A stretch of DNA of 64,000 bases. It comes from a virus (taxonomy: Duplodnaviria; Caudoviricetes). Of this stretch, positions 3,858-62,220 are shown one piece after another. Under the pieces are notes generated by a model. The model saw only the letters and a program-made list of their open reading frames with translations. It had not been told where the DNA came from and did no database searches. The first letter of the stretch is position 1. Each line of letters opens with the position of its first letter. The translations under genes were made by a program, and so were the position numbers. Where the stretch lies: the IMG/VR virus record IMGVR_UViG_3300038345_000144; one strand, given 5' to 3'.

Positions 3858-3876
3858 TATATAATTAAATAGTCTC
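3858..3876 (-). promoter_or_regulatory. Element-specific motif copy 1
   Basis: GAGACTATTTAATTATATA right after stop of GIY-YIG gene. Confidence 0.6.
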
Positions 3877-4527
3877 TCATTTTTGGGTTGGGCGAGCCGA
3901 AATATGGTTAAATTTAGGCTTATAAGAGTCAATCATCGCTTGTTCTGCATATGTCAATAACTCTTTATATTCCCTTTCGTTCTTTAACTTGGGGACAGCC
4001 ATAAGTTTCTTGAATTTTAAGTCCGATAGTTTATAGGCATTGGCAAGTTGATAATATTTATATTCAACCTTGTGCTTTATTTTGTCAAGGTTTACCCTCT
4101 TCTTACGAATTCTGATACCCTGAAGTTGCTTTTGAGCCTTAATAAAGTTGTCCTTGTGCTGTTGGACACGGGTTGAAATATCTACGCTCTGACCTACATA
4201 AAGGCAGGTATTACCGTAGAATATGCCATAAATCCCTGAACTATGGGAAATTCGCTGTATGTATTTTCTTTGATATGCACGGGTTTTATGAGTGAGCCTA
4301 TTAAGATAAGGATAGAGGTAATGCTCCTTGTCGATAACATTACCCCTTCTATCCTTCTTATCTTTAATAACATACAAAGGCTGTTTTAACTCGGCACATT
4401 TCTGGCACTGCCTACCAATAAACCAGGTATTGCCGTGTATTTTACATTTACCCTTGTATTTAGTGTTGCGGTGTTTGTAGCAAACTACGAATTTGCCACT
4501 ATCCTTACCGCAGACCCTACATCTCAT
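3877..4527 (-). CDS. GIY-YIG endonuclease with N-terminal Cys/His zinc-finger region
   Basis: SGIYGI...LYVGQS..I..R..QH...E...FN; CxxC and CxxH clusters. Confidence 0.85.
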   Translation of the reverse strand: MRCRVCGKDSGKFVVCYKHRNTKYKGKCKIHGNTWFIGRQCQKCAELKQPLYVIKDKKDRRGNVIDKEHYLYPYLNRLTHKTRAYQRKYIQRISHSSGIYGIFYGNTCLYVGQSVDISTRVQQHKDNFIKAQKQLQGIRIRKKRVNLDKIKHKVEYKYYQLANAYKLSDLKFKKLMAVPKLKNEREYKELLTYAEQAMIDSYKPKFNHISARPTQK

Positions 4528-4718
4528 TCTTTGTCCATCTTTACAGCACTATTATAGACTTGTGGCAAATACTCATACATCATACCGTACTTATTTGCCA
4601 CCTGAATTCCAGTAAGGGATTTAATCTTATCTGAAAAATCGAGTAACAAATCAATATCATTAGAAATACATTTGAAGTTCTCGTCAAAGAGAACCTTTCT
4701 TTGCTCCTGTAATGTCAT
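4524..4718 (-). CDS. Hypothetical protein
   Basis: 64 aa, GGAGG RBS, ATGA overlap with GIY-YIG gene. Confidence 0.6.
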   Translation of the reverse strand: MTLQEQRKVLFDENFKCISNDIDLLLDFSDKIKSLTGIQVANKYGMMYEYLPQVYNSAVKMDKE

Positions 4719-4733
4719 TAAGTTACCTCCTGT

Positions 4734-5915
4734 TTATTCATCTGTAACAGTGACCGTTGCGGTCTTCGTTACACCATCATCCGACTCAAAGTAAACCTTA
4801 TAACTGCCTGCGACAGTTGTGTTTACATTAGAGCAGTCTAACCAAATTTGACCTGAACCAGAAACACCTTTCATAAGTTGTTTCATAATAGTACCCTGTG
4901 ATGTACCAACTGGTACGGAGATATTATGAACACCATTGATATATGCCTTTGGCTTCGGTTTTGGTGTAGGCGTATTAGTAGGCTTTGGTGTAGGTGTGTT
5001 AGTGTCCTTCGGCTTTGGAGTAGGCGTGTTAGTAGAGCCACCACCATTATCCTTCGGAGCCGATGTAGGCTTCGGTGTGGATGTTGCCGTATTCTTTGGC
5101 TTTGGTTTAGGTGTGGCAGTTGCCTTTGGCTTGGAAGGTGCCGTAGTAGGTTTAGGTGCGGAAGTATTCTTTGGAGCCTCGGTTGGCTTGTTCTTCGCCG
5201 CTTCCTCTTCTTGTCTCTTTCTCTCTGCCTCTTCTGCCTGTCTTCTCTGTTCTTCAGAAGCCATAACACCAACATTGAGAACTTTAACAGAAGAATTACC
5301 TACCTCATCGGTAGCCTTATATTCTACTTGTAAAGTGTCTTCAGTCCAATTAAAATTTGTAGGATATTCAACTTTTATATTCTTTTCTTGAGAATAGTTG
5401 TCCTTTATAGCCTTGATAAAGTATTTAGGGTTAAATGAGTTTGTCTCTGAACCCCTAACCAACAAGACTAAATCTTTCTTCAACTCGATTTCTGGGGGTG
5501 TATTATCTACAACCTCAACCACAAGGGTCTTATTATGAGTTCTGGCTCTATTCTTTACAACATACTTGACCTCATAGCGAGATAGTACCTTTGTCATTTT
5601 GTCAATAACCTTTCCTTCGGTAGAAGTATCTACGAGGTCAGCACCTATGACTTCATAAGGCACATTCTCTGTATTGATGACATACTGTTTTGCATCAAAA
5701 GTAGAACCAATGTCTAATTGCACTGTATCATTCACCAAAATGATATTAGGGTCGGCAATATAGTCATATATATATCCCCTGTAATAAAAGGCAACTCCTC
5801 CAGTTACCGCTAATATACTCAAAAGAGTTATCAGTAACACTTTAGCCGTCTGACTTATGTGTTTTTCACCGATTGTAATATCGGCATCGTGGGCATAATG
5901 CCATTCCATTATCAT
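4734..5915 (-). CDS. Membrane-anchored surface protein with bacterial Ig-like (DUF5011-like) repeats and Pro/Thr/Lys linker
   Basis: TM, VVDNTPPEI..., Y.ATDEVGN, PTPKP repeats, C-terminal Ig-like domain. Confidence 0.75.
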   Translation of the reverse strand: MIMEWHYAHDADITIGEKHISQTAKVLLITLLSILAVTGGVAFYYRGYIYDYIADPNIILVNDTVQLDIGSTFDAKQYVINTENVPYEVIGADLVDTSTEGKVIDKMTKVLSRYEVKYVVKNRARTHNKTLVVEVVDNTPPEIELKKDLVLLVRGSETNSFNPKYFIKAIKDNYSQEKNIKVEYPTNFNWTEDTLQVEYKATDEVGNSSVKVLNVGVMASEEQRRQAEEAERKRQEEEAAKNKPTEAPKNTSAPKPTTAPSKPKATATPKPKPKNTATSTPKPTSAPKDNGGGSTNTPTPKPKDTNTPTPKPTNTPTPKPKPKAYINGVHNISVPVGTSQGTIMKQLMKGVSGSGQIWLDCSNVNTTVAGSYKVYFESDDGVTKTATVTVTDE

Positions 5916-5933
5916 ATTAAGTAAGTTCCCCCG

Positions 5934-7157
5934 TTAATCAGTGAAGTAAACGTGGCTTGTACCGACTTGCACTCCCGCCGAGTCAACCCAACAAATGGTC
6001 CAAGTACCACCTGGCACGGCTTGTTCATTTGGGAACTGCGGGCTACAATAACCAGTACCCGTATAGGAAACTACGGAATAGGCAACGGCTGTATATACTC
6101 CATCTAATCCATCTGACAATGACCAAGTAATATCACTTGCTTTGAAAGTTACTGTATCAGGAGAAGGATTTTCAGGTGTATAGTCATCATCACCGCCTGA
6201 CGAACCACCACCGCCACCACCAGAAGTAGGGGCTGGAGCCTCTGTTTCAGGGGGAGGTGCTTCCGTAGGTTCAGGTGTAGGAGTAGGTGTGGGGCTTGGT
6301 GTAGGAGTAGGTGTTGCTCTACCCTCTGCAACGGCTCTTTCTGCCTGCTCTTGCTCGAACTGGTCTCTTAATTCCTCATTCTCGAAAATATAAACTGTAA
6401 GTGTAGCAGTTGCTACATTTCCAGCCTCATCGGTTGCCGTATAAATTACTTCCAGAGTTCCAATTCCTGTTTGTGGGTTAAGTGGAGTATTCCAGTTACC
6501 CTCTGCAAAAGAACTCTCGATATTTTCTGTGAGCGTGTAATTATCCGTAATGCTCTCTACATAATCTAAAGCCTTGAAGTATTCACCTGTCTGAACACCC
6601 TGTACCAAAAAGGCACTTTCAGATGTGAGTGCAATAACAGGTGCAGTAGTATCAACAATGTTGACTACCAAGACCTTATCTGTTGTTTGAGCCTCATTTT
6701 GAGATAGATAATGTACCTCGTAAGATTTAATTATTTTTGTGTTTCTATCAATAGTTACTGGCGTGTACCAATCATACTTTGGAGCCACATAAGTCATCCA
6801 CCAATCCTCTGTACGAGCATAGGGGTTAACCGCACTACCACCTCTGATTTCGCATACAAATACCTTATTTTGAATATCTGCCATACTATCAGGGATAATG
6901 TAGTTCTTTGCGTCAAATTCTGTACCATATTCCAGATTTACATTGTCACTAACCAACATAACTGATGGGTTAGCAATAAGGTCAAAGAAATATGACCAGT
7001 TAAGTAAAATCAGTGTTAATGCCGAAACTAAAGTAACCACAACGCAAATTAAAGTTATCTTTGCGACATTACTTTGGTGTTGCTCATATAATACTAAATC
7101 CGCTTCACCAGAGTAATTCCACGATTGAATATTAGACACCTTTTTGTCTTTATTCAT
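5934..7157 (-). CDS. Paralogous membrane-anchored Ig-like surface protein
   Basis: TM, IVDTTAPVI, YTATDEAGN, PTPT linker; aligns with 4734-5915. Confidence 0.75.
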   Translation of the reverse strand: MNKDKKVSNIQSWNYSGEADLVLYEQHQSNVAKITLICVVVTLVSALTLILLNWSYFFDLIANPSVMLVSDNVNLEYGTEFDAKNYIIPDSMADIQNKVFVCEIRGGSAVNPYARTEDWWMTYVAPKYDWYTPVTIDRNTKIIKSYEVHYLSQNEAQTTDKVLVVNIVDTTAPVIALTSESAFLVQGVQTGEYFKALDYVESITDNYTLTENIESSFAEGNWNTPLNPQTGIGTLEVIYTATDEAGNVATATLTVYIFENEELRDQFEQEQAERAVAEGRATPTPTPSPTPTPTPEPTEAPPPETEAPAPTSGGGGGGSSGGDDDYTPENPSPDTVTFKASDITWSLSDGLDGVYTAVAYSVVSYTGTGYCSPQFPNEQAVPGGTWTICWVDSAGVQVGTSHVYFTD

Positions 7158-16476: not shown

Positions 16477-16520
16477 ATCCGTATGTGTTCTCCTTTGCTG
16501 TTTATCTTCTCATAATTCTA

Positions 16521-16547
16521 TTATATATAAATAGTCGTTCATTTTAA
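16521..16547 (-). promoter_or_regulatory. Element-specific motif copy 2
   Basis: TTAAAATGAACGACTATTTATATATAA, 45 nt upstream of ATG 16476. Confidence 0.7.
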
Positions 16548-16690: not shown

Positions 16691-19600
16691 TCATTCTTCG
16701 GGATTTTCGTTAGAATTTCCCTCGATTGAGGCAGAATTAGCCTCGATAGCACTCTTTTTTTTGCCTTTTACGACAAATACCGTTGTAAGTCCAACAGCAC
16801 CTACTATGATGAGTGCTACAAGAGCCATAATAGGCATTGAGTCACCAGTCTTCGGTGTCGGAGGAATAATGATTGCTCTATCAAATACGCTGATAGGGAT
16901 AATCTCTTCCTTACCGTAGTCTGTTGTAGAAACAGGCTTAATCTGGTGCTTATCAGTGTTGAGGTTATAGCCAGCAGGGGCTTTGGTCTCCATAGCGTAA
17001 TATGTCTGACCCTCAACATATCTGATAACGAACTCAATCTTACCTTCGCTATTTGTTAAGCCTACGCAATCGTTACCGTTAACATCCTTTGCAACCTTAC
17101 CGTCGCCTGTGTAAACAGTGATTTCAGCGTTTGCAAGATAATACTTGACATTATCACGGTCCATCTTTGCAATAGAAACTCTCAAATAGTGAGGTCTATG
17201 GATTGTCTGATTTTCGTCATTCAAATCCTTGTGCATATCGAATACGAAGCCAGTCTTGGAAGTCAATGTCTCGAAAGCAACAATCTGGTTAGGCTTTACG
17301 AATTCCTGTTCACCAGTCTCTTCGTTAGTCCTGTAATAACCGAATGTGCCAGAGTCAACATCCTTGAACTCAACTACATAATCGCCGTCTGCGGTTTCAG
17401 GTACATAAGTGAGTGTCTGGGTGAGTGCTTCACCGCCCTCGCTTCTATACAACTGTGAACCTGTCTCTTGGTCAACGAGAGAAGCAGTTACATTGTAAGT
17501 CTCGCCAACTACGAGGTCGTGGTGATGAACTGTATCAGCATAAGTCTGTACTGTGTTATCAAGTACCAACTTGTTGTCGAAGTCGTCACCATCGTTCTCA
17601 CCCTTGACTACAAGGAGAGTTGTCTCAAGTTCAGGCTTGAAATCAATGTTCTGGTTCTGGTCGGTTACATCTTCGTGAGACGAAATCTGAATTTCCTTCT
17701 CAACCATAGGTGTAGTATCGTCGTTATCGTCGTCAACCATAGCCTTGCAGTACATATACTCGAAACATACAATCCTTACGGGCTGTCCGTCATTACAGAG
17801 TTTTGTACTGTCGATGTCAGAGAAGTAGACATATTCAGTGCCTTCTCTGGAAGTTGCTGTGAAAGTAGTATCGGAGTCACCGTCAAATAACTTCTCTCCA
17901 AGTGTACCGTCAGCCTTAACTTCCCAAATCTGACCTCTGAATGTGTACTCTGTTCCCTCGCTTGCGTTCTCGTAGTCCACCTTATCACGAATGACAACGG
18001 CTGTACCCAAAGAACCTCTGTGAGAGTTAGATGCTACATCAATGAGTGTTGTGTGAAGTGTAGGAGGTACGATAGTAACCGTCTGGTTCTCGTCCTTCAA
18101 ATCTTCGTGAACAGCAATCAAAGTGCCATCTGAAGCGTAAATTCTCTCGAAACATACAATCTTGATAGTTTCAAGTTTATTCTCGCTTGCGTTCCACTTA
18201 ACGAAGTCTACTGTATCTACCTCGAAAGGTACATTAGCAACACATTCGTTATGGTTCTCGGCAGTAGGTACGAACGATACTCTATTTGTGTAAGGCTTGT
18301 TAGTATCTCTGTCGATAAGTTTCTCACCAGTTTCGCCGTTAACAAGGACTGCTTCGGCGTAGTAAGTCTCACCAACATTGAGGTTAGTAGTCTTAACAGC
18401 ATCATTCATAGGAACATTCTCACCGATAGGTGTAAGGTGTGAACCAGAAACCGTATCAACGAATGTTGTAGTTACTGTCGGAGGTACGATTGTTACAGTT
18501 TCTAATGTGTCTGCAACATCGCAGTGGTCTGCTCTCTGTCCATCATAGATGTCAAAGTCGCTATCCCAGTCACAATATACATAAACTACAAGGTCTTTTG
18601 CAGTAAATGTTACTGTACCGTCTGCGTTCTCAACACCCTCAACGAGTTTAGCAGAGTTAACATTCTCGAAAGTTACCTTTGTTGTACCGTCTTTTGCTTC
18701 AGGTACGACGCTTACAGTTGCATTAGAGAGAACTGTATTGAGGTCATCCTTTGCATACAACTCTGCACGGAAAGTATATCTTCCAGTAGGAGCAAGGTTG
18801 TAATACTTGATAGTATCATCAAGACTTACTATATTACCTACTTCAAGAGTATGATTACCGTTATGAATTGATAATGCTTCGGTCTCAATCTTAATAGGAG
18901 CATTATACATAACAAAGTTCTGTACTTTTACTTCTACTACATTCTCAACAGGCTGTAACTGGTAGTCATCATCCATATAGAGTTCTGCCTTACCACTTGC
19001 GTCAACCTGCATATCAGGATATTCGATTGCGAAAATTGCTTGGTCGGGCTTAACCGTAGGCTCACCATTTGCATCTGCGAATGAGTAACCATAAGGAAGT
19101 TTAGACTCAACTACAACATAATTTCTATGCTCGAACTGTCCTGTTGTGCTATTCCAAACGTGATATGCTCTCAACGGGTCGGAAACATACTTACCCTGTG
19201 CATCGTCCCACCATACTCTTGCCTGACGATATGTGCCAAGTGGCTTACCGTCAACATAGACTTGGTTGCCGTTTGCATCGAGTTGGTTCTGCCAGTTACC
19301 ATCGACATCATAGTAGCCGAGGGCAATCTGCTCGAACATCTGCTTGCCGTTTGCATCGAGTTGAGGCTCGAATGTCATAGCGATTTCATCCTGCTCGTCC
19401 CACTCACCTTCTACTGAACCATTATCATAGTAGATAGTAAATTCAGCGTTCTTGATAGGCTCCTTTGTTTCAGAGTCTAACTTCTCGATTGTGATAGGTG
19501 CAGAATATGGTTCGTCATACAACTTAACTTCAAAGATGTCATCTGTAATAGAACCGTTATTGTTGAGGTCATAAATAGTAACAAATCTATAACCTGTGTC

Positions 19601-22600
19601 AAGATAGTAACCGTCAGCAGTGATGATTTCTCTTACTGCATACTGTCCAGACTTCAAGCCGTTGAAAGCAACGATACCAGAATGAGGACGGTCAACGATA
19701 GTTCTTACATTATCCTTCTCTGCTCCAGTGATTTTACCATCTTTGTTGGTATCACTATAAAGTTCGAAGCGGATAGCATAATTACCCTCGTAAGGTCTCT
19801 TTTCGCCTGTGAACGGGTCAATGACGATAGGCTCGCCTGTCCAAGTATCATACTTGTTAGCATATACAGGGACATCCATTACATTAACGACATAGAATAC
19901 CTCTTCTGTCTGGTCAACTAACTTAACAGTTGCTCTTGCTTGAGGGTCGGCTCCTCTATTAGAGTGGAAACGAACCTCCATATTATTAGTGTTCTCGCTG
20001 ATACGATACCAACCAGCAGGAATATCCTCAAGGTGAATGTTACCGTTTATATCAGTAAGTCTAATAATATAAGTATGTGGCATTTCGTTATAGGCAGGCA
20101 TACCGATTGCTTCCATTTCGGAAGAGTCCATATCCCAATAAGCCTTATCGAGATTTCCACCGTACTCGAACAAGAACTCATAACCTGCAAGGCTGTTTCT
20201 GTCATCGGTGTTATCCTCTGACCATACCTTGTTAAGGTCAATGTCTCCATACATTAAGTGGTTCTGTACTGCGTAAGTTACGCTGTCCTCACCAACAGCC
20301 ATCTTATGTGCTGTATCTTCAGGTGAGTCAAAGTGCATTTCCCACATAGTATTGAAGTAACTGCTCTGTGTCCAAGAACTGCTGTTGTAAATCTGTGCAG
20401 TTGTTGAAGTAGCAACATTCGGATAAGGAATACTGCTTGCAGTACGAGGTGTGTTTACACGGCTTGTTGTACCATTCTGTGCTGTGACAATCTCGTAAAT
20501 CTCGCCTGCGATGTCATAAACACCGTTAGATGCAGGAGGGTTAGAGTCATTATCATTGTCATAAGCATATTCAGGTACTTCGAAGATTTCATAGATATAG
20601 TATGTCTTATCATATACTAATCCATAAAGTCTATCCCAACCGTCAGGAAGAGCGTTTCCTGCACTGTCGTACCACTGGTCTTCACCAAACTCATAGTAAC
20701 CAACGAGGTTAGTTTGAGCCTTCATATAGTCTTTCAAGAGGTTCTGACCATTCTTCTTTGCTTCCTTCAACTGTGCCATTGTGAATGTCGGATAACCACC
20801 AGCAAGAGGACCACTTGTGATAAAGAAAGTCGTTGTATTGATGTCAAAGTGATAATCCGTAGAGTCATTCTGACCGTTGTTGTTAACATCGAGGAAAGGT
20901 GTATCAGTAGACTTGAAGACCTTGCCACTCATCGAGTCTTCATAATAGAAGTTATCAATGTTATTAGAAATAACAATGTTCTTGCCCTCATACTGTGCCT
21001 GTCCGTCGTCAGAGTAGTTGTGACTCTGATGAGCGTGGTAGTTAGTAATTTGAACACTATAAGGTGTTGCAATCTGACCACCAGACATTGTGTATGTGAG
21101 TGTACCGATGTGTGTTGTCTGTGAAACATTTGTCAAATCAATCTGGACTGTGTAAACACTTTCAGTATCTAACAATTCAGTCTGGTTCTGTTCAGGAATG
21201 TTCCATTCGTTACCGTTGTTGTCCCTCAAGATTGTAGGGGCTTTTGTTTCCTTTACATAAACCTTCTCATTGTAGTTGAATAAGAGGTCTCCACTCTCAC
21301 TTACAGTGTAACTTGTAGGAGAGAATGTGAGGTAATCACGCAAATTACCTGCCTGTGTAGAAACATAGTGACCATCATTATTGTCGGTTAATGTCATAAT
21401 AGGCTGTGTGCAAGCCTCATCATAATAGAGAGTGAACTCTGCACCAATATATGTCCAACCATTATAAGCCTTCTTATTGAGATAGAAGTCAAACTCGGCA
21501 TTTGATGGATAGTCGGTTGCTTGAACCTTTACGATTTCTACATCAGTTGGCTCTTCGCCAGAAGCGACATCCAATTCGTGACAAGCAGTTACAGTAAAGT
21601 TCAACTTTTCACCCTGTACGCCAGAAGTGAAGTTATAGTACATACCACCGTAGAACATAGACTGGTTAACTGTCTGTCCTACAAACTGTGTGATAAGTGT
21701 ACCAGAGTTTGTTGTACCGTCAGGGTAAGTACCAGCGTTAGCAATATCGTTAGTCTCCGTAGGTCTAATTTCCGTTGCATAGAAATCACCAGTAGGAAGT
21801 CTGAAATACTGTGAACCGCCTGTAAGTCTTACAATAGGTGCAACATTCTCATCAGGCTTGATGTCATCAGGATAAGTAACAGACTTCATTTTACCATATT
21901 CGTCAAGGACTACAACAGCATAAAGTTTGTTCTCTGCCTGTGAGTAAATACCATAAACAGTATTATCAATAGAAGTTCCTTGTTTATAACCGTTAAGAGG
22001 TGCATTTACACCAGTAGGAAGGATATTTTCCTTCTCAATTGCGGCATAACCATAAACTACCTTATCGTTGAATGTTACACAAAGACTATCTGCCTGTGCA
22101 GGGTACTGACGAACATAGAGAGTGTTTCCCATAGGACCATTATTAGTCTCGTTATTATAGAAATACAACTGCTCTAAAGGTTCATCAGGCTGTCCATTTA
22201 CTGCCTGTGAAACTACCATACCAAACAAAGGTGTGTTGTTGAGATAATAGAACTCATTTGTAGAAGTTTCTCTAACAATATAAGTACCAAATCTCATAGG
22301 AGGTTGACCTTGAGTAAGGGCAAATTTAGGGCAAGTAAGTCCGTTAATTGTGACCATACCATAGTCTTTTGTTCCCTGACCTGTGCAAGTAAGTGTAGTA
22401 GTGTCAGTAGGTGTATGTGTGTCAAAGTATTCCTTTAATGCAGTAGAGTCATTATAAACTCTAATATTCTCTGTTACAGAATTTGCATCATAGAAATAAT
22501 CATCATAATAGTAAACAGTAAACTGAATACCATCAGTAGTTGCGGCAGAAGGAGCGTTTACTTCGTCCCACTGCTCATCGTCTTCCTTCTTAACCTTCTG

Positions 22601-25600
22601 CTGGATAGGGTCTCCATCAGGGTCATCCTTTACTAATACGCAGATAACAGCACCATCGTCAGCAACTCCACCGCCCTGAACAGGGTAAGTAGGGTCGTAG
22701 AACGCAGTTGTATAGTCTACTGCGTGTGGGTTAAAGTCATAAAGATAACCACTGTTGTAGTTATAACCATTAAAGTTACGAACAGGAAGAGTTCCATCGT
22801 TCTCATAAACATTCCAGTTATTAGCAACAATATCATCTACTGTTAACTTAATAGCCTGTGTCTGACCACCAGTTTGACCCATAGGCTGTGTAAACTGATA
22901 TGTCTTGTTGTTACCTTCCATACGGAAAGTAAGACCTTCCATAGAGTAACAATTTGTGTAAGAACGGCTGTTTGCAGACTCTTTTGCTACATAAACATAG
23001 AGGTTAGTGATTACAGGAATGTCAAGACCGTTAACGTGGTATTGAGCATTGTATCTCTTAAACTGACCTTCAATCTGGTTCTGCTGGTTGCTATGAGAAT
23101 ATACCCAAACTTGATAATCATACCACTGTGAGTATGGAGTACCACTCGGATAAGTAAATGTGTTATCTACTGCCTGACCACCACCAAATGTGATAGTAGC
23201 ACCAGCACCAAGCACACCAAAGTTAATTGCACTTATGTTAGTTGCATCAATTGTGATGTTCCAATCACTATAAGTAACACGAAGTCCTGTATTAGCAGTA
23301 TTGATAGTATCAATATACTGAATAAGTGCCTTCTGTGCATCAGGAGCAACATCATCAGAATTAACAACCTTATTACCTGTGTGCTTATCAATAACACTTA
23401 CAGGAAGTGTATAAGTCTGACCAGGAATGATAAGAAGTTTACCATCAACAAGTGTCTGACCAGTATAGTCAATAGCAATATCATAGGTAACCTTTGTATC
23501 AAAAGTACCAGAATTGCTAAAACTACTTTCATTAGGAACACCTACTTCGGTTCCCCTAACAGAAATACCAGCACCATCACATAAGTATTCCCAAACCCAA
23601 GCCTGTTTTTCATCGTTATCATAAGAAGAATAACCTAAAACAAGTGAGATGTCGTGAACATTATCGTGATTATTAGCAGTATCATAAGGCAAATAAGAAA
23701 CCTTTGTACTCTTTGCATCAGGTTCAGCATATTCAGCAAAACCCATAACTCTATAAGGGTGTTCAGTGTGTCCATTTACTGTGGCAGTAGGATATGTTTC
23801 GTGCGGTTGAGCACAATATGTTCTATTTGTGTGATTTCCAGAACTATTGAAACCATTACCATATCCATCGTACCAACCACTACCATCTACACGAACAGCA
23901 TAACCATTTCTTTGCTTATTACCAATGATTGACTCATTAAGATTATCGGCAATAGTCTGATAATTAACTGTTTCAGTAGAAGATGATACACCTTCACCAA
24001 CGAACTTGTACGACTTTGTTCCTAAGTTATACAAGCCTCTTAAAGTCTGGTTGGCTCCCTGTGTAGTTAATCCGTGGTTAGTATCACTTACCGTTGCGTG
24101 GAACTGAATATTCCACTTATGCTCCATCTTATAATCCCAAGTCATAAAGACATTGTAAACATCTCCATATTCTTGAGCATAAATAGTACCGTGAGATATA
24201 TTGAAATCATATGTTGCTTTATGACTGTCTACAACAATACCTGTTATATCATCAATATCATTAGCAACATCATTAGTTCTACTCTGGTTAACAGATTGAG
24301 CACTATCACAAATATCCTTAAATACATCGCTAATATGGTTATAGTCTGCCATAATGGAATTACGCTCAATATCAATAGCGATGGCTCTATCGGAGTACGA
24401 TGCTGGAATATTATTCTGTCTTCGATACTCATTTATTTGGGCTTTAGTAACTTGGTGTGTATAAGGATTACCTGTGGATTGACCTGAACGACCAATAACA
24501 CCATCACCACTATTATCAAGTGAACCTGAAATAGTAACTTTAGTGCCATTATATGTTGTTTTATTTATTCCTAAAACATCTTCATCTTCTGGCTCGTAGG
24601 TATATTGAGTACCTGTGCTATAAAAAGTATTTCTATTTGCACAGCCAAGTCCCCAATAATCTGTATTATAGTCATCAGGAATTTCTGGCTCATCATCAAC
24701 AATAGGTGTGAGTGAGAAATTTTCCCAATAAGATACAGTATTTGAAATCTTACCTGCAATAAAAAGTGAAGCCGCATCTGAAGTAGAGTCAGCAACTACA
24801 TAATAATTAGCGTCAAAGTTAGACAATACATTCTTTGTACGGTCTGCATTAACAGCACCAATTGAATATGTAGCACAATTAGCAGGAATATACTCGCTTG
24901 CAGACTTATTGTTGTTACCTGCGGAAGCGACTACTGTAATGCCCTGTGTCTTACATTCCTCAATAAGAGACTTAAATGCGTCATATTCACCATTATCTCT
25001 TACAGAAATAGCAAGGAGAATATAATCTACATTCATTTCCTTTGCGAACTGAACAGCATTGTAAACATCAGAAATATTACCGTGACCGTCATCGCCAATG
25101 GCTTTGATTGAAATAATATAAGCGTCACTTGTATTGTTAAGAATGTTATTTACCATTCTTGTACCGTGACCGTTTCTATCATATCCATCATCACCATCAA
25201 GAATACAATAAGCCTCATTTGCAAGGTCGGAACCTGTATCAATAACGGCAACCTTAACAGTAGCGTCAGGGTTGATTTCAGCGTTACCATAACCAACAGA
25301 ACCAGTACCACAAACGGCTACATCACCGTCGATAGAATACTCATAACCCTTGTTTGCACAATAAGTAATGGCATTAAGATACTGTGACTGGTCAACAAAA
25401 CTAATTACATAAGTACCGTCAAAGTAAACACCAAAATCAGGATTAAGGTCCTTACTAATATCAGCCTTTGTGTTGATGATAAGTTTTGTACCAGACATTC
25501 CTGTGATATAGGTTACAAACTCTTCAAAAGATGTTGCAAGAACAATATTTGAAGGCTTGACCGCCTCTATCTTTGTAAACTCATATTCGTTAGATGTGAG

Positions 25601-26302: not shown

Positions 26303-26513
26303 TTCGAAATTACCTCAATTCTTTCTTTAATCTTTGCAAAAATTAAAAAGTATTAGTAGTTCTTTCGTTAGTGTCTTATAAAATCCTCGCTCAAATGGTT
26401 TGTATTGGTCTTACCACTAACTATAAGTTACTTGCCATCGAACTCTCTACTGCATTATGCCTACATTAGTAAACATTCATTATCACTTCCTTTCAAATGC
26501 TCTTTACATTCAC

Positions 26514-26535
26514 ATATATAAATAGCCTTTCATTT
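26514..26535 (-). promoter_or_regulatory. Element-specific motif copy 3
   Basis: AAATGAAAGGCTATTTATATAT upstream of adhesin. Confidence 0.6.
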
Positions 26536-26798: not shown

Positions 26799-26830
26799 GA
26801 AAAAGCCCTTGAGGAAATCTCTCAAGGGCT
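26799..26830 (-). terminator. Intrinsic terminator/attenuator hairpin
   Basis: AGCCCTTGAG-N7-CTCAAGGGCT followed by TTTTCTT. Confidence 0.75.
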
Positions 26831-26888
26831 GTTGTTTCAGTCAAGTATTATTATGTGAGATTACCTAAACAATAAGTATATAAACTTA

Positions 26889-26910
26889 TTATATATAAAT
26901 AGTCGTTAAT
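26889..26910 (-). promoter_or_regulatory. Element-specific motif copy 4
   Basis: ATTAACGACTATTTATATATAA. Confidence 0.7.
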
Positions 26911-26915
26911 TCGTA

Positions 26916-29383: not shown

Positions 29384-29420
29384 AAAAAGTGTAGGGGCTA
29401 ACGCAAGCGTCAACCCCTAC
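29384..29420 (-). terminator. Intrinsic terminator
   Basis: GTAGGGG...CCCCTAC hairpin followed by T-tract. Confidence 0.75.
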
Positions 29421-29537
29421 TATTGGTAAATGTGGATTATACAAAAATTATGAAAATTATAAAATAGTCCAAATATGCTTATAAAGCCACCAGGCACACA
29501 CTTGGCTGATAGTATAATCCACAAAGCATTAAGCCAG

Positions 29538-30200: not shown

Positions 30201-30245
30201 TTATTATTCCTCCTTTAATATATAAGTTCCCTAATCAATCTGTTT

Positions 30246-30608
30246 TTACTGTTGAGCCATAAGGTTCTCGACATTAGCGTGTACCGTATAAACCGTCTGA
30301 ATTCTTGAAATGATGGTCTTGAGTTGGTCTATCAGTTCAGGGGCTTCTAACTCCTGACCACGATACTTGACCAACCCTTGCTCATCAATAGAAAATACAA
30401 CAGATGGTTGACCGTCCTTGTCGAGACAGATGGCTTGATAGTCACAACATTCATCTTGGTAATTGTCGTTTGTAACAAGAACATCGTCTTCTGATATAGG
30501 TTCAATTATTTCAGACCAATCAGGGGAAGAGATGTTACGCATAGTAATTACCTGATTATCTAACTTTGAGAGCATCAAAGTTAATTCTTGGGCTAAATTA
30601 TTATACAT
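30246..30608 (-). CDS. Hypothetical protein
   Basis: 120 aa, GAGGAG RBS. Confidence 0.7.
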   Translation of the reverse strand: MYNNLAQELTLMLSKLDNQVITMRNISSPDWSEIIEPISEDDVLVTNDNYQDECCDYQAICLDKDGQPSVVFSIDEQGLVKYRGQELEAPELIDQLKTIISRIQTVYTVHANVENLMAQQ

Positions 30609-30627
30609 AACGAATTCTCCTCTCTAA

Positions 30628-30969: not shown

Positions 30970-30984
30970 TTTTCAATTCCTCCT

Positions 30985-31518
30985 TTAGAATTTGTCCTGC
31001 ATATAGTCGAATACTATCTGCATTTGATTTTTGTTGAAACCGTATAATGAATATCCTGACTTACGCAAATCATCAATGATGTCGTTTGCCAGTTTACTCA
31101 TAATCGGGTCATACTGTTTCGTAGAAGAGTTGTCCTGCTGTGGAGCCGACTCCTTCTGTACTGTCGTTTCTTTTCTCGGTCTACCCGCACGACTCTTCTT
31201 CTTATTATTATTAAATAGTCCTTCCTGTGACGGTTGTGTTACAGACGGTGCTTCTGGTACTTTGGTATCTACCGCAACCGCTTCTCCCTCCGTCGCAAGG
31301 GGGGCTACTTCTGACTCTGGAGTATCAAGAGTAATCTCCTGAATTCCTGTGCTTGAAAGCAGTGCATCTTTGGACTCTGCTGACATTTCAGAGAAAATAT
31401 CCTCATTTTCCTGTGCTGATGTCATCTGCTCCTCTAAAGTATAAGTTGACTTTGGGGTATCGTCCAAAGCCTCTTGAGCGATACCTTCAAGTCTTGAAAG
31501 TGCATCTTCTCTACCCAT
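30985..31518 (-). CDS. Acidic protein with AT-hook-like motif
   Basis: KKKSRAGRPRKE followed by helical C-terminal domain. Confidence 0.6.
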   Translation of the reverse strand: MGREDALSRLEGIAQEALDDTPKSTYTLEEQMTSAQENEDIFSEMSAESKDALLSSTGIQEITLDTPESEVAPLATEGEAVAVDTKVPEAPSVTQPSQEGLFNNNKKKSRAGRPRKETTVQKESAPQQDNSSTKQYDPIMSKLANDIIDDLRKSGYSLYGFNKNQMQIVFDYMQDKF

Positions 31519-34030: not shown

Positions 34031-34095
34031 TGTGTAATTTTCCTCCTATTGAATAATTTGCTTTCAAATTACTTAACTGTAACATTACATTACTA

Positions 34096-34122
34096 TTACA
34101 ATTAAATAGTCGTTCATTTTAA
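34096..34122 (-). promoter_or_regulatory. Element-specific motif copy 5
   Basis: TTAAAATGAACGACTATTTAATTGTAA; first 20 nt identical to copy 2. Confidence 0.7.
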
Positions 34123-41577: not shown

Positions 41578-42015
41578 CTAAATTTCAATCAAGTTATCCA
41601 TATCTAACCTATCCCAGTTTTCTTCAATGACATCTAAAAAGTCACCGTAGATGTGGTCAAAGTTAAGTAATGAAGTGTACTCGAATATATTTATTGTAGT
41701 TAAAACCTTAATGATTTCCTTATACTCCTCCACGGTAAAAATGTCTGTAAAAAATCTCTGCTGACAATTGTAGAATGTCTCGGCAGAGATATAAATGAAG
41801 GAGTCTAAATCATCGTCTGTGTCTGTATATAGTATAAAACAGTCTTGCCTTTTAATCTTGGTGCGAAGACCTAATTTATACCTCCTTTTATGGGTTATTG
41901 CCCCGTCGCTGTAAGTAATGGGGAATTCCTCACTAACCTTACATCTATCGAGGCAATAATAATCAAATTCCTGATGTTCTTTAGTCACTTTACAAATTCT
42001 CCTTTGCTTTTTCAA
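41578..42015 (-). CDS. Hypothetical protein
   Basis: 145 aa, TTG start overlapping end of Mre11 gene. Confidence 0.6.
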   Translation of the reverse strand: MKKQRRICKVTKEHQEFDYYCLDRCKVSEEFPITYSDGAITHKRRYKLGLRTKIKRQDCFILYTDTDDDLDSFIYISAETFYNCQQRFFTDIFTVEEYKEIIKVLTTINIFEYTSLLNFDHIYGDFLDVIEENWDRLDMDNLIEI

Positions 42016-43024
42016 AGTGTTCAGTGCTATCAGGATAGTTTTGTCGAACCCACGGAATTAAAGGTGGCATTAGGGTCTTCTTTTCTACGACCTTTTCGGC
42101 ATTATCTCCCGTATCTTCGTGCTGAACAGGCTCAATTACAAGATTTACTGCCTTGTTCTTTGCCTGAATAAACAAATCATTGTTTATTACTTCAGGATTA
42201 CCGTCAAATACGATGTGATAAATGTCTTCTGTAACATCAGTAAGAACCTTATTGATATTCTTCTCGTTACAGTTCTTTTTGACTATATGAGGGGATTTAA
42301 CCAAAACCCTCCTATAATCAAGGGTATCTGTATCTAAAAATACGGGACCAGTTCTATCTTCATAGGCTTGATAGTCAATGGTCGCACCTGGCGAGATTAC
42401 AAGGGTTTTGCCCTCCCAATACTCAAAAGGTGTATGGATATGTCCAATTACCACTACATCAAACAATTGTATAAAGTCGTCTGATAACCTAATCGGGTCA
42501 TCTACAAAGTGTTCTCTGAAGTACCTGTCCGTAACACCGTGCGTAATAAGTATCTTCTTTGGACAATTTGTGGTCTTAACCAACTCTCTACAATTAGCGA
42601 TGTATGTTTGGATATTATCCACCGTATCATAGATATACGGCATCAAGATAAAGGCAACATCATCTATTTCTACTAATTTTAACTCATAATCGGAAAAATA
42701 GGTATGGGGTGCAATACCAACAGCACTACATTTATTCCTTCTATTAGCAAAAGCAAAGTCGTGATTACCCGTAATATCAATGGTAATGAAGTCTTTAAGG
42801 CTCTGCTGTGCCTGAATATAGTGCGTTAACGGTATTGCGGTAGGATTGGCGGTTTCAAACTGGTCGCCAGCACAAATAATGACCTTCGGCTTTTCTTTCT
42901 TGAAAACCTTGACATATTCACGCATTACCCTATATCCGATTTGCTCATACTTATTGTAACCAGTTTCATCAGTACGATACATACGCTTTCCGTTATGCAA
43001 ATCACTCCATAGTCCAATTAACAT
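41990..43024 (-). CDS. sbcD: Mre11/SbcD-like metallophosphoesterase nuclease
   Basis: SDLH, AGDQFE, GNHD, THG, GHIH, PG motifs. Confidence 0.88.
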   Translation of the reverse strand: MLIGLWSDLHNGKRMYRTDETGYNKYEQIGYRVMREYVKVFKKEKPKVIICAGDQFETANPTAIPLTHYIQAQQSLKDFITIDITGNHDFAFANRRNKCSAVGIAPHTYFSDYELKLVEIDDVAFILMPYIYDTVDNIQTYIANCRELVKTTNCPKKILITHGVTDRYFREHFVDDPIRLSDDFIQLFDVVVIGHIHTPFEYWEGKTLVISPGATIDYQAYEDRTGPVFLDTDTLDYRRVLVKSPHIVKKNCNEKNINKVLTDVTEDIYHIVFDGNPEVINNDLFIQAKNKAVNLVIEPVQHEDTGDNAEKVVEKKTLMPPLIPWVRQNYPDSTEHFEKAKENL

Positions 43025-43051
43025 ATTTTTGTGAATATTTCCTTTCGATTA

Positions 43052-43068
43052 TTATATATAAATAGTCC
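43052..43068 (-). promoter_or_regulatory. Element-specific motif copy 6
   Basis: GGACTATTTATATATAA, 28 nt upstream of Mre11 ATG. Confidence 0.7.
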
Positions 43069-43104
43069 TTTATCTTATCGTTTATCTTATCATTTATCTT
43101 ATCA
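43069..43104. repeat. Three tandem 12-mers TTTATCTTATCR
   Basis: 43069-80, 43081-92, 43093-104, abutting motif copy 6. Confidence 0.9.
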
Positions 43105-43887: not shown

Positions 43888-45522
43888 TTAAAGCAATCTC
43901 TCATCGTGTGATACAACTATCCACTGGTTCTTGTCCTTCTGCATAATCTCCTTAACAGCCATAAGGTTGTTAGAGTCAAGGTTAGCAAAGGACTCGTCCA
44001 TTACAAGCGGTAAATTAGGCATAAACATATCTCTGATAGTCAAAATCAATGAAAATGCTACAATTCCACGCTCGCCCTGTGATAGTGTGGCTACGGGCAA
44101 AGTCTTCTTGACCGTATAATCCTTATCGTATAACTCTGCCTTATAGATACCGTCATCAATAAACAACCTTACATAACGGTTATTGATTTCAGAAAGTAAC
44201 TTTGATGCACCAGCAACAATCTGCTCTGCATAGAAAGCCTTACACTGTGAGATATACTCATCGGCAATAGCAATACACTCTTTATCAATATCATATGCCT
44301 TACGAGCCTGCAATAACTCTGAAATCTTGGCGAAATCTTTATTGAGACCCTCAAGTTCTGACTTCTTTTTATCAAATTTAGCAAATAACTCGTTTGTATG
44401 GGCATTATAAGTGCTTAAAATACTCTCAAAATCGACATCTTTTGAATATTCTACTGGAGCCATCAACTTAATAATGTGCCAGTATTTTACAGATGACGCA
44501 AATTCAGAGAACGAATATGCTGATTTATCGGCTAAAATCTTCTCCAAATTCAATATTTTTGCATTATCAATGGTATCATAGTCGATTTTAGGCTCTACAA
44601 AGTCGGGTTTTCCGCATAAAGCACACTTACATTCAGCCTTACTTTCCTTAATAAGTGAAGCAATCGTTGACTTCGGATATTTAGAAAGCGGGCTTGCAGT
44701 AGTCTTTTTCTTCTCTTCTTCGAGTTCCTTCTCGACATTAGCAAAGTAGTTATTCCACTCTTCTTCAGTCTTACCATAGGTTCTTAACCTCAAGCAAGTT
44801 TCTCTGTCATAAGGGGGAGTAACACCTTCAACCTTTGCCTGTAAATCTTGATAAACAGCAAAGTCCTCTTTTGCCTTCTTTGCCTTAATGAAGTCATTAT
44901 CAGCAACGAAAGTCTTTGACCTAATCTGCTTATCAAGTTCTGCAACCTCGTCGGTTAAAGCGTCTACATCTGCCTGTGTAACCTCTTGGTTCTTAATCTG
45001 GCTCTCTAATGTAGACTTGTGCTTCTGATTATATGATTTATCAGAAACGAAATACTGTCTTACGGCATTGACCTCATCAAACTCTCTCTCAAGAATTTCA
45101 AAGAGATAGTTTGTGTTCAAGACAGTAGACTTATATAACGGCTCACAACCCCAAAGGCTCGTAAGCACGGACTCGGATATAATCCTATTCAAAATCTCCT
45201 TACTTTCATTTCTGGTTCTGGAGATAAGTTCTTCATCTTTATATAACTTATAACTTGATGTCTTACCTACTTCTCTTTCTATGATATAGGTAGAGGCATT
45301 GTGAGTAAACTTCAATACAATCTTGGTAGGCTTGGTAATATCTACTAAACTTTCAAAATTGAGATTTGCTGGTCTTTTATCAAATAAGCAAAGAATAATC
45401 GCTTCAATAAGACTTGTCTTTCCCTCACCATTTTTCCAGTTAATAATGTTCAACCTTTCGAAATCCACTTTCTTGTGGTCAAAACATTTCCAGTTAATCA
45501 TACTAATACTATTTAGTATCAT
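43888..45522 (-). CDS. sbcC: Rad50/SbcC-like ABC ATPase (short coiled coil)
   Basis: NWKNGEGKTS, Zn hook CALCG, LSQGE, MDESFANLD, VSHD. Confidence 0.88.
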   Translation of the reverse strand: MILNSISMINWKCFDHKKVDFERLNIINWKNGEGKTSLIEAIILCLFDKRPANLNFESLVDITKPTKIVLKFTHNASTYIIEREVGKTSSYKLYKDEELISRTRNESKEILNRIISESVLTSLWGCEPLYKSTVLNTNYLFEILEREFDEVNAVRQYFVSDKSYNQKHKSTLESQIKNQEVTQADVDALTDEVAELDKQIRSKTFVADNDFIKAKKAKEDFAVYQDLQAKVEGVTPPYDRETCLRLRTYGKTEEEWNNYFANVEKELEEEKKKTTASPLSKYPKSTIASLIKESKAECKCALCGKPDFVEPKIDYDTIDNAKILNLEKILADKSAYSFSEFASSVKYWHIIKLMAPVEYSKDVDFESILSTYNAHTNELFAKFDKKKSELEGLNKDFAKISELLQARKAYDIDKECIAIADEYISQCKAFYAEQIVAGASKLLSEINNRYVRLFIDDGIYKAELYDKDYTVKKTLPVATLSQGERGIVAFSLILTIRDMFMPNLPLVMDESFANLDSNNLMAVKEIMQKDKNQWIVVSHDERLL

Positions 45523-45553: not shown

Positions 45554-45583
45554 ATTATAGCACAAAATACAATGTCTTGTAAA
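45554..45583 (-). promoter_or_regulatory. sigmaA-type promoter for Rad50
   Basis: TTTACA-N18-TATAAT with extended TGn. Confidence 0.65.
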
Positions 45584-47008: not shown

Positions 47009-47302
47009 TTACTTTGCAACTTCGACCTTGACAGCCTTCTTTGCAACGGGCTTCTTTGCGGGAGCCTTCTTTGCGGTCTCAAGAGTCTTAACCTTTGCAA
47101 GAGCAACCTTCTCGTTAGCCTTTGCCTTCTTGACCTTCTCTGTTGCCTTAACAACCTCTGCCTTTGCCTTTGCAAGAGCCTTCTCTGCCGCCTTTACATC
47201 AGCAGTAGCCTTCTTTGCATTAGCCTTTGCCTTTACGATAGGGTCAACCTTCTTTGCAACGGGCTTAACCTCTGTCTTCTCTGTCTTAATTTCTTTAGCC
47301 AT
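47009..47302 (-). CDS. Histone H1/HC2-like Lys/Ala-rich protein
   Basis: KPVAKK and KAKA repeats; start placed at ATG 47302 after AAAGGA RBS. Confidence 0.75.
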   Translation of the reverse strand: MAKEIKTEKTEVKPVAKKVDPIVKAKANAKKATADVKAAEKALAKAKAEVVKATEKVKKAKANEKVALAKVKTLETAKKAPAKKPVAKKAVKVEVAK

Positions 47303-47443
47303 AATTTTAATTCCTTTCGTTTTTTTAGCCAAAATTTCCTTTATAATTAAACAAGGTTATCCTTGTGTAATTAACTTATTAGATTGTGTTGGGAAAAATC
47401 ATAAACAACACAATGCGACAATTTTTTGTGTTTGTTCTTCTAA

Positions 47444-47465
47444 CATAATTAAATAGTCGTTCATT
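47444..47465 (-). promoter_or_regulatory. Element-specific motif copy 7
   Basis: AATGAACGACTATTTAATTATG. Confidence 0.7.
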
Positions 47466-47488
47466 CCTACTATTTTCAACATATAAGC

Positions 47489-47517
47489 ATTATACACACT
47501 TCATTTCTGTTTGTAAA
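47489..47517 (-). promoter_or_regulatory. sigmaA-type promoter in tandem with motif copy 7
   Basis: TTTACA-N17-TATAAT. Confidence 0.65.
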
Positions 47518-49948: not shown

Positions 49949-49977
49949 AGTATAACAACTACCTTATTACTTGTAAA
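49949..49977 (-). promoter_or_regulatory. sigmaA-type promoter
   Basis: TTTACA-N17-(TGt)TATACT. Confidence 0.6.
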
Positions 49978-58749: not shown

Positions 58750-58767
58750 TTTTTCATACTTCCCTTC

Positions 58768-58784
58768 TTACAATTAAATAGTCT
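58768..58784 (-). promoter_or_regulatory. Element-specific motif copy 8
   Basis: AGACTATTTAATTGTAA right after stop of HAD gene. Confidence 0.65.
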
Positions 58785-59267
58785 TTAGGTCATAATGGAC
58801 GACATATGGAAGAAATGGCACTTTTCAGGGTTCTTGAAGTGTCTTTCCATTACCAGCAAGTCCTCTAAATTGTCATCAATATAGATAAACTCTCCGTAAG
58901 TGTCAAGGATAGACTCTAACTGCCTAATCTTGTCCTCCAGAGATTTAGCCCAATATAACTTTGAGATTTTAGGATAATACTGATGAATTTCATCGGTCTT
59001 ATTCTCAAACTCGATGTCATTATGTATCTTACTCATAACAAAGAGGTTCTTGGTGTTGGTCTTATGACTGACAAAGTTCCTCATATAAGGGATAGGTTCG
59101 GCGTACAAACATTCGTCTTCCTTCATAGCCTCAAGTAAGGCTTCATCAGAGTTATCCATAATGCTGATTTGCTTAACAAACCAACGAGCCTCAAATAAAG
59201 TTCCGTCGTAGTCAAATACAATAGGCGTATCTGGGTTCTTCATCAATTCTTGTAAATACTTATTCAT
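58785..59267 (-). CDS. HAD-superfamily hydrolase (capless)
   Basis: VFDYDGTL, FVMS, K, YIDDN. Confidence 0.8.
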   Translation of the reverse strand: MNKYLQELMKNPDTPIVFDYDGTLFEARWFVKQISIMDNSDEALLEAMKEDECLYAEPIPYMRNFVSHKTNTKNLFVMSKIHNDIEFENKTDEIHQYYPKISKLYWAKSLEDKIRQLESILDTYGEFIYIDDNLEDLLVMERHFKNPEKCHFFHMSSIMT

Positions 59268-59297
59268 TCCTTAACTTACCTTCTTTATCGTTTTTAA

Positions 59298-59768: not shown

Positions 59769-59778
59769 TTCTCCTCTC

Positions 59779-60765: not shown

Positions 60766-60802
60766 AACTTACTTCCTTTCAGATGTATCTTATTGTGCGA
60801 GT

Positions 60803-60832
60803 ATTATAGCACATTCGATACTTGCTTGTCGA
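60803..60832 (-). promoter_or_regulatory. sigmaA-type promoter for nuclease
   Basis: TCGACA-N18-TATAAT with extended TGn. Confidence 0.6.
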
Positions 60833-61712: not shown

Positions 61713-61740
61713 AAGTTACCTCCAAACTCCTGTGGGAGCA

Positions 61741-62136
61741 TTACATACCTAATTTAGCCTTAACGCTGTCGGAGAGTTTGAATGTATATTCACAACTCTT
61801 GCTCTTGAGTTGGTTACAAATGAGTTCAGCCTTACCTCTTGGGATAAGCCTCAAATCCTCTTTTGTCATATCTCCGTCCATAAGGATAGTGAAATATACT
61901 CTCGCACCGTTAATCAGTTCAATCTTCTCTAACTGCTCGGTTGTAGCGTCTTCCATAGACTCAAATTTAGCACTCATCATACGACCAATCTGGTTCATAC
62001 ACTTTAAGAACAACATTGAGTAGTTGGTCTTCTCACTCTCCTTTAACTCCTGATTGCAGTCAAAGGCGATAGCAAGTGGATATGTGTCGCTGATGTCTGT
62101 AATGGTGAATTCGTATTGTTTAATTTCCTTTGCCAT
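61741..62136 (-). CDS. Hypothetical protein
   Basis: 131 aa, AGGAGG RBS. Confidence 0.75.
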   Translation of the reverse strand: MAKEIKQYEFTITDISDTYPLAIAFDCNQELKESEKTNYSMLFLKCMNQIGRMMSAKFESMEDATTEQLEKIELINGARVYFTILMDGDMTKEDLRLIPRGKAELICNQLKSKSCEYTFKLSDSVKAKLGM

Positions 62137-62147
62137 AAAAGCCTCCT

Positions 62148-62186
62148 AAAAAATAAAGGAATTAGACGAAAGTATCTAATTCCTTT
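62148..62186 (-). terminator. Terminator/attenuator hairpin
   Basis: AAAGGAATTAGA/TCTAATTCCTTT followed by ATTTTTT. Confidence 0.7.
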
Positions 62187-62199
62187 TTTAATTATTTTA

Positions 62200-62220
62200 T
62201 TATAATTAAATAGCCGTTAA
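62200..62220 (-). promoter_or_regulatory. Element-specific motif copy 9
   Basis: TTAACGGCTATTTAATTATAA overlapping upstream stop codon. Confidence 0.65.

Follow-up and report, generated by a model that had tools for sequence, protein, structure and literature searches.

A conserved CTATTTA motif as the probable core of a second promoter class in a family of large gut and rumen elements

Introduction

Promoters of T7-type single-subunit polymerases are conserved over about 20 bp up to +1. The early promoters of phage AR9 have the form AAATATATATTAT-6N-G+1, and all phiKZ-related phages possess extended, AT-rich and conserved promoter motifs (PMC5312081, PMC7598289); AR9 genes that are continuously expressed carry dual promoters (PMC5312081). 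Here we analyze a motif with the core CTATTTA in a 64,000-nt stretch of DNA (the window; IMG/VR record IMGVR_UViG_3300038345_000144, filed under Caudoviricetes) and in relatives of the element to which it belongs. Like the early promoters of phiKZ and AR9, the sites built on this core (class A) are extended, AT-rich, conserved, over-represented before operons and present in tens of copies per genome. A preliminary description of the window had read the motif as the mark of an element-specific regulon of the mating apparatus, set apart from other genes with promoters of the host sigmaA type (class C). We put at roughly 0.6 the probability that the motif belongs, as its core, to a second promoter class specific to these elements; the class would be distributed genome-wide in gut and rumen elements of 0.25-0.47 Mb and likely read by machinery of the element. 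A full-text search for CTATTTAAT together with "promoter" and "phage" returned, judged by titles and abstracts, seemingly incidental sequence matches only.

The motif and its sites in the window

All long open reading frames (ORFs) of the window lie on the minus strand, and 7.9% of its length is intergenic. The exact word TAAATAGYC was found ten times on the plus strand (3866, 16528, 26519, 26896, 31212, 34103, 43059, 47450, 58775, and 62207) and never on the minus strand; its minus-strand reading, GRCTATTTA, runs in the direction of the genes. Nine of the ten copies are intergenic. Dinucleotide-preserving shuffles gave a chance expectation of 1.47 copies and a maximum of 5, and none of 100 reached ten. 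The ten coordinates, the co-orientation and the nine intergenic positions given in the preliminary description were reproduced exactly by this recount, and the extended minus-strand consensus, (AAATGAAC)GRCTATTTAWWTRT(AA), or AATGAAC-GRCTATTTA-WW-TRTAAT-A when written out, stands as first given. Scored with a weight matrix derived from the nine intergenic copies, these reached 27.9-36.4 and the coding copy at 31212 reached 20.1, in keeping with its earlier designation as a weaker copy. The best other place in 128 kb (both strands) reached 10.9, so that no tail of weak copies follows the real ones. The sites, with their scores and surroundings, are as follows.

3857..3882, minus strand: class A site, score 27.9; start predicted near 3857; separated from an HD-domain gene by a class C promoter (3788-3760)
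16519..16544, minus strand: class A site, score 36.4; heads an 11-gene run from 16476 down to 3877
26510..26535, minus strand: class A site, score 30.8; upstream of the gene for a 3203-amino-acid (aa) adhesin; end of a rumen RNA-library contig at 26507
26887..26912, minus strand: class A site, score 35.6; followed by a short untranslated stretch and a hairpin with U-run (26830-26804)
31203..31228, minus strand: weak copy, score 20.1; within gene 30985-31518
34094..34119, minus strand: class A site, score 35.9; upstream of the operon of a ParA-like ATPase; kept before the ortholog in five relatives
43050..43075, minus strand: class A site, score 29.3; upstream of the genes for an Mre11-like, a 1388-aa and a 932-aa lysozyme-domain protein
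47441..47466, minus strand: class A site, score 35.4; in tandem with the class C promoter 47517-47489, upstream of gene 47009-47332
58766..58791, minus strand: class A site, score 28.4; purine-rich ribosome binding site (RBS) from 8-9 nt past the core
62198..62223, minus strand: class A site, score 35.1; followed by a leader hairpin (62186-62155) with U-run, AGGAGG and gene 61741-62136

The window sequence is present in sheep and cattle gut runs, metatranscriptome libraries of several studies among them. These RNA data are assembled contigs, from which starts, strand and expression levels cannot be read and in which uncovered parts are uninformative. Such contigs pass through the coding copy 31203..31228 with no sign of a start. 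The leader hairpin after the 62207 site has a folding energy of -15.3 kcal/mol (z -3.0). Both hairpins with a U-run that lie between a class A site and the next gene (62155-62186 and 26804-26830) may be promoter-proximal terminators or attenuators.

Conservation of the motif in related elements

The 1388-aa protein of the window (36967-41133, minus strand) has 77 relatives with 33-98% identity, several of them on contigs of 250-530 kb. Scanning IMG/VR with an alignment of 17 of these relatives yielded five records (CheckV 100% complete; the records behind L042-L045 and L052) and two contigs from metagenome-assembled genomes (MAGs). The five complete relatives are listed with the copies of the 13-mer CTATTTAWTWATA on the gene strand and on the other strand.

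G001, 394 kb: 38 copies on the gene strand, 0 on the other
G002, 290 kb: 40 copies on the gene strand, 4 on the other
G003, 251 kb: 10 copies on the gene strand, 0 on the other
G004, 467 kb: 38 copies on the gene strand, 1 on the other
G005, 332 kb: 27 copies on the gene strand, 0 on the other

Scans of IMG/VR and JGI metagenomes with single proteins found no relative. Phage and plasmid collections gave no megablast match to 24 kb of window sequence, and nothing was obtained by tblastn of a family protein against the phage collection or by an exact 38-mer search in IMG/VR. The 16-mer AATGAACGACTATTTA gave 41 single matches in IMG/VR; the four that were read were chance, three of them being ATGAACGACTATTTA, possibly a gene start (Met-Asn-Asp-Tyr-Leu).

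The relatives are distant from the window and, between lineages, from one another, with a median protein identity of 40-50% (G001 and G005 share 79%). In G001-G005, genomes of 250-467 kb, about 98% of the coding DNA is on the same strand. Such a one-directional gene layout, shared with the window, is extreme for replicons of this size.

The motif was conserved over this divergence. Aligned intergenic CTATTTA copies gave a family-wide class A logo of T-N-AARRR-CTATTTA-ATWATAWW-A/G on the coding strand, in which only the two or three bases preceding CTATTTA vary between lineages; the position-frequency matrices were concordant across genomes of 27-39% GC. A de novo search for 8-mers enriched in intergenic DNA recovered CTATTTA-containing words in every genome. 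GRCTATTTA was likewise biased to the gene strand (57 copies against 2 on the other strand in G004, 25 against 5 in G001 and 24 against 3 in G005; reversed-pattern controls, 3-15). Between 78 and 92% of the CTATTTAWTWATA copies were intergenic, while intergenic DNA makes up 9-12% of each relative's genome, so the motif is not equally common in coding DNA, an outcome that the preliminary description had named as one that would refute its reading. Class A sites were spread over the whole genomes without clustering, at about one per 7-12 kb over 0.25-0.47 Mb. A polar chromosome motif of the KOPS or Chi type was considered and rejected, since the copies are restricted to intergenic DNA at gene starts.

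Two sites of L046 (IMG/VR sample 3300045988) read GGAAGTTGTG-CTATTTAT; the part before CTATTTA differs between lineages and CTATTTA is constant. L047, L048, and L051 resemble the lineage of L046.

Two promoter-like classes kept ortholog by ortholog

Besides class A, the window contains, as the preliminary description had reported, a set of sigmaA-type promoters (TTKACA-17/18-TATAAT). They lie on the minus strand at 63601, 60832, 49977, 47517, 46937, 45583, and 3788, mostly with a TRTG-type extended -10. Those with further annotation are:

63572..63601, minus strand: class C, TTGACA-18-TATAAT with TG; upstream of a 440-aa gene
60803..60832, minus strand: class C, TCGACA-18-TATAAT with TG; upstream of a 328-aa gene
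49949..49977, minus strand: class C, TTTACA-17-TATACT with TG
47489..47517, minus strand: class C, TTTACA-17-TATAAT; immediately precedes the class A site 47441-47466
45554..45583, minus strand: class C, TTTACA-18-TATAAT with TG; upstream of the Rad50/SbcC-like gene 43888-45522
3760..3788, minus strand: class C, TTCACA-17-TATAAT; upstream of the HD-domain gene

Two tandems of both classes occur in the window (47517 then 47466; 3882 then 3788). In the relatives, class C has the form TT(T/G)ACA-17-(TG)nTATAAT, with 26-60 intergenic copies per genome and an almost invariant 17-nt spacer. Its -35 is extended in a lineage-specific way: AAACTA-TTTACA in G001 and G005, TTG-TTTACA-AAT in G002 and plain TTGACA in G003. 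The class C promoters of G001 and G005 (61-66 intergenic sites each) follow the pattern AAACTATTTACA-17-TGtTATAAT. Their extended -35 contains CTATTTA, as class A does; the class C promoters of the window are without this prefix.

We compared the classes of orthologous genes, using reciprocal-best pairs in which both members are the first gene behind a site. Sixty-one pairs were class A in both genomes, 61 were class C in both and 9 were mixed; with the close pair G001/G005 left out, the counts were 42, 32, and 9. Among the 40 ortholog groups that span several lineages, 34 were pure, 19 of them class A and 15 class C. When the labels were shuffled within lineages, 17.5 groups on average and 28 at most were pure, and none of 10,000 shuffles reached 34. 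The two transcription programs proposed earlier are supported to this extent, both classes being kept across distant relatives. One example is the ParA-like gene, which has a class A site 37-79 nt upstream in six of six genomes although the flanking sequence is unalignable.

What was not supported is the assignment of class A to the mating apparatus. The class is genome-wide and, besides the ParA-like gene, also heads SSB and Mre11-like genes (the G004 ortholog of the latter likewise stands behind class A) and many genes of unknown function. First genes behind class A are mostly without Pfam domains, the exceptions being SSB, a surface Ig-like domain and DUF7487. First genes behind class C are mostly nucleic-acid enzymes, such as an NAD-dependent DNA ligase in two parts and a CCA-adding enzyme, together with a kinase-phosphatase-RNA-ligase fusion, an RlaP-type nucleotidyltransferase, a DUF2828 protein and DUF932. 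An enrichment of membrane proteins behind class A was seen locally (8 of 25 versus 0 of 8 in the window), but was not significant across the family (18% versus 15%, p 0.09). The transfer and surface bias noted before is therefore local to the window.

Site architecture and predicted start point

In every genome, conservation reaches upstream to about 12 nt before CTATTTA and contains no -35 hexamer, which bears out the earlier remark that no consistent -35 could be seen. Downstream, a start codon lies 20-29 nt past CTATTTA at 14 of 146 sites, with the RBS beginning 9-10 nt past the core, as in CTATTTA-attataata-AGGAG; the same layout is found on contigs of a Bacilli bin (G006, below). The ninth base past the core is A at eight and G at one of the nine window sites; in the relatives it is A at 60-80% of sites, often followed by G. 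Because the RBSs begin 9-10 nt past CTATTTA, transcription would most likely start about 9 nt downstream, at the conserved purine (in the window, the plus-strand start of the motif minus 9). The rumen metatranscriptome contig over the 5' part of the adhesin gene, which ends at 26507, 12 nt past the core, gives a weak hint in this direction. Class A thus appears to be one contiguous block of some 24 bp that spans about -21 to +2 and has no -35. An archaeal-type TATA box, with a start about 25 nt downstream, was rejected, as start codons with their own RBS lie 20-25 nt past the core.

Upstream of the ParA-like gene, three genomes carry unrelated stem-loops without a U-run, which begin 12-14 nt past CTATTTA (oriented coordinates):

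G001, about 26.4 kb: stem-loop before the ParA-like gene
G003, about 135.1 kb: stem-loop before the ParA-like gene
G005, about 282.7 kb: stem-loop before the ParA-like gene

They could be 5'-terminal stabilizer hairpins, which would fit a start just ahead of them.

The 3' end of the motif had been called -10-like, and this resemblance raises the alternative that host polymerase, with sigmaA or a host alternative sigma factor, uses the tail as its -10 and CTATTTA as an upstream or spacer enhancer, without any factor of the element. At four of the nine window sites a perfect TATAAT follows the core at a distance of two nt, and the remainder match 3-5 of the six positions; the region is AT-rich, and one relative, G003, is without a detected sigma factor of its own. 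Yet -35 and TG are absent, and the would-be T-7 of the tail is T in 34-48% of sites across the relatives (in the alternative register, TATTTA, position -7 is an invariant A). A start 7 nt past the hexamer would delete the RBS at at least 10 sites, and the RNA contig end at 26507 lies 3 nt upstream of the start that this alternative predicts. Moreover, the real sigmaA-type promoters of the same genomes differ clearly from class A and are equally conserved. The tail is probably not a sigmaA -10 box, because a start about 15 nt past the core would cut off the RBS and because T-7 is unconserved. The likeness to a -10 seen earlier holds in the window, but a function as sigmaA -10 is improbable, and we regard reading by the host alone as distinctly unlikely.

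Candidate readers of class A

As possible readers, the preliminary description had named an element-encoded sigma factor, activator or polymerase, and a search of the five relatives found both polymerase and sigma genes. Each relative carries one RNA polymerase beta-like gene, whose open frame of 740-777 aa matches RNA_pol_Rpb2_6 (in G003, two matches in a single frame). With one beta-like gene per genome, a second polymerase set, as in a virion plus a non-virion enzyme, was not found in these five genomes. Sigma70-family genes occur in four of the five, with two to four copies each; none was detected in G003 by Pfam, phmmer or tblastn. Regions 2 and 4 were present in all seven sigma factors scanned, and most also had region 1.2 and/or 3. 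The beta-like gene has a class C site as its nearest one upstream in three of the five relatives (G001, G003, and G005), and the same is true of eight of nine forward-strand sigma genes. The T7-like polymerase domain PF00940 had no match in the five relatives, in a search without a positive control, as the control genomes gave none either. In one sigma gene of G005, an in-frame TAG lies inside the region 2 match (G005:C1:30270-30476); the gene may be broken, or stop codons may be recoded in part of the genome.

The sigma paralogs raise the possibility of a classical phage middle or late sigma switch, in which an element sigma70-family factor on host or element core polymerase would read CTATTTA as a -10 without -35. 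Four of five relatives have two to four paralogs, and the position of the sigma genes behind class C is what an early-made switch factor would show; the geometry GRC-TATTTA parallels TGn-TATAAT, and -35-less promoters of phage sigma factors are established, as for T4 gp55 (PMC5312081). Against this stands G003, which retains class A before orthologous genes without a detectable sigma factor. Region 4, found in every sigma factor scanned, suits -35/-10 promoters such as class C, and TATTTA is without the T at -7 required by a sigma70-type region 2. Since sigma-less G003 has the plain TTGACA and the sigma-bearing genomes have the extended TTTACA, the sigma factors are tied to class C. A sigma switch at class A is on balance rather doubtful. 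Because G003 keeps class A without a sigma factor, we infer that the polymerase is the better candidate reader of class A.

Element, chromosome and the nature of the family

The 2.3-Mb Bacilli bin G006 contains a 50-kb contig (C14) with a homolog of the 1388-aa protein. All 17 exact copies of CTATTTAATTATA in this bin lie on C14 and eleven smaller contigs, and none on the large contigs. When the eleven, together with C25, which carries the CTATTTATTTATA variant, were tested, homologs of family proteins were found on ten of the twelve; C18 and C65 had none. On the large contigs (67-199 kb) only variants of the word occur; they lack the flanking consensus and are about as frequent as the reversed-pattern controls. 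The absence of the exact motif from these contigs likewise speaks against its use by host sigmaA alone.

Two further loci were binned discordantly. L054 (CACYRP010000039.1) is found in a MAG labeled Fibrobacter succinogenes, on a contig of 45% GC, and L053 (JAZAUS010000014.1) in a Bacilli MAG, at 28% GC; at least one of these binnings is probably an artefact. CTATTTA[AT] had no copy in the 15 kb of L054.

The relatives are filed as viruses by IMG/VR, and four of the five have terminal repeats. Models for the large terminase (PF03237 and PF17289; Terminase_6N, Terminase_6C) and the HK97-type capsid (PF05065, Phage_capsid) had no match in the five complete relatives, although these three models could miss virion genes that have diverged. 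An AAA_10 ATPase is present in all five (E 1e-31 to 1e-37), and the window carries genes for an FtsK/HerA-like ATPase, a signal peptidase, a cell-wall hydrolase and a cell-wall-anchored adhesin. Going by this gene content, the label of a huge phage may be mistaken, and these may be conjugative elements.

Points against an element-specific promoter

Several observations weigh against class A as a promoter read by the element. The argument from the RBS is void if read-through transcripts are the sole templates for translating the genes concerned. Two RNA-library contigs span the 34103 site. A terminator-like hairpin precedes 15-20% of class A sites, and the rest could be operon-internal signals; the corresponding value for class C is 18-40%, so hairpins do not discriminate between the classes, and the finder is permissive in AT-rich DNA. 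Sites between divergent genes were too few to weigh, and the ORF calls behind them are doubtful. The frequent perfect TATAAT at fixed spacing makes host sigmaA possible in the window. The polymerase and sigma genes counted are those of the relatives G001-G005, and the nearest detected site is class A for the beta-like genes of G004 and G002 and for one sigma gene of G002. Lastly, the comparison with a chromosome proposed in the preliminary description gave the expected absence of the exact motif from the large contigs of G006, but sharing this bin is not proof that the bin is the host.

The contigs crossing 34103, the lack of a terminator upstream of most sites and the leader terminators after two window sites, which recall antitermination systems, would also suit a signal other than a promoter, such as a one-sided regulator site (an operator or a place of anti-terminator loading) or an RNA-level processing or protein-binding signal. 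However, the motif is asymmetric, strictly co-oriented with the genes and shows no conserved pairing. Its distance to the conserved purine is fixed, and it lies 20-150 nt before start codons, as class C does. Two hairpin terminators shield the adhesin gene, and the gap between them and the gene holds, apart from the class A site, only weak sigmaA-type matches (9 of 12). The tandems of both classes, of which the relatives contain 23 pairs, resemble the dual promoters of AR9. We consider such a signal very unlikely and a second promoter class the better account.

Other features of the window

Pfam matches in the window comprise the 3203-aa TQ-ester/SpaA adhesin (gene 16691-26302), the 932-aa protein with a lysozyme domain, an SbcC/Rad50-like protein (43888-45522) with an Mre11-like phosphoesterase (41990-43024), two SSB-like proteins, the ParA-like ATPase (operon 32441-34030 onward), an S26 signal peptidase and the N-terminus of a HerA/VirB4/FtsK-type ATPase; the HD-domain gene lies at 3291-3734. 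An Rfam search of the window gave no match. The 11-gene run behind 16519..16544 encodes membrane and unknown proteins, one of 1182 aa, and 58766..58791 is followed by a small ORF and then a long series of small genes. The densest cover by RNA-library contigs, from four studies, was seen at 29391-31253, over the genes between 29538 and 31518, and one RNA contig terminates at 29412, within a strong hairpin terminator (29420-29391).

Discussion

The conservation of CTATTTA sites gene by gene, their strand and intergenic bias and their spacing to RBSs are consistent with two promoter classes of different use. Class A would most likely be read by the element's compact multisubunit RNA polymerase together with a specificity factor, and probably not in the ordinary way by the host sigmaA holoenzyme. 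As the polymerase and sigma genes stand mostly behind sigmaA-type promoters, the pattern fits a cascade in which a class C step would come first and class A second; genes with tandem A and C promoters would be expressed throughout. A more specific version is tentative and, to our mind, somewhat short of an even chance: class A as a sigma-independent promoter of about 24 bp, forming an orthogonal pair with a three-gene multisubunit RNA polymerase plus specificity subunit on possibly conjugative elements.

For an uncultivated family of giant elements, the two promoter codes, kept gene by gene over deep divergence, offer a readable map of transcription and a better annotation of such genomes with respect to units, start points and leader terminators. 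They also correct the view of the motif as the mark of a transfer regulon. A promoter of about 24 bp is here paired with a cell-type RNA polymerase of unusually small size, and this pairing could show by what means a minimal multisubunit polymerase locates promoters that lack the canonical -35/-10 pair.

Among known systems, Firmicute extended -10 sigmaA promoters (TRTGnTATAAT) are resembled by the TATAAT-like tails of the window and matched exactly by class C; class A differs from them in having no -35, TG or conserved T-7 and in an apparent start too near the core. Promoters of T7-type polymerases share with class A a contiguous block, here about 24 bp, conserved up to a purine start, whereas PF00940 was unmatched in the relatives in the search described above. 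With the T4 gp55 promoters (TATAAATA) class A has in common a private word, a -10-type element only, no -35 and a possible cascade from host-type promoters. In contrast to gp55, the element sigma factors are full-length with region 4, and G003 keeps the motif without a sigma factor; CTATTTA also differs from TATAAATA, of which it resembles the complement on the coding strand.

The phiKZ and AR9 systems share further traits with this family, as the relatives encode their own beta-like polymerase and some genes carry both classes in tandem. They differ in the promoter sequence and are unrelated to the family, which has one beta-like gene with no sign of two sets and also carries full-length sigma factors. 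Unlike in these phages, the polymerase genes lie behind sigmaA-type promoters; the enzyme is therefore more likely made after entry than injected.

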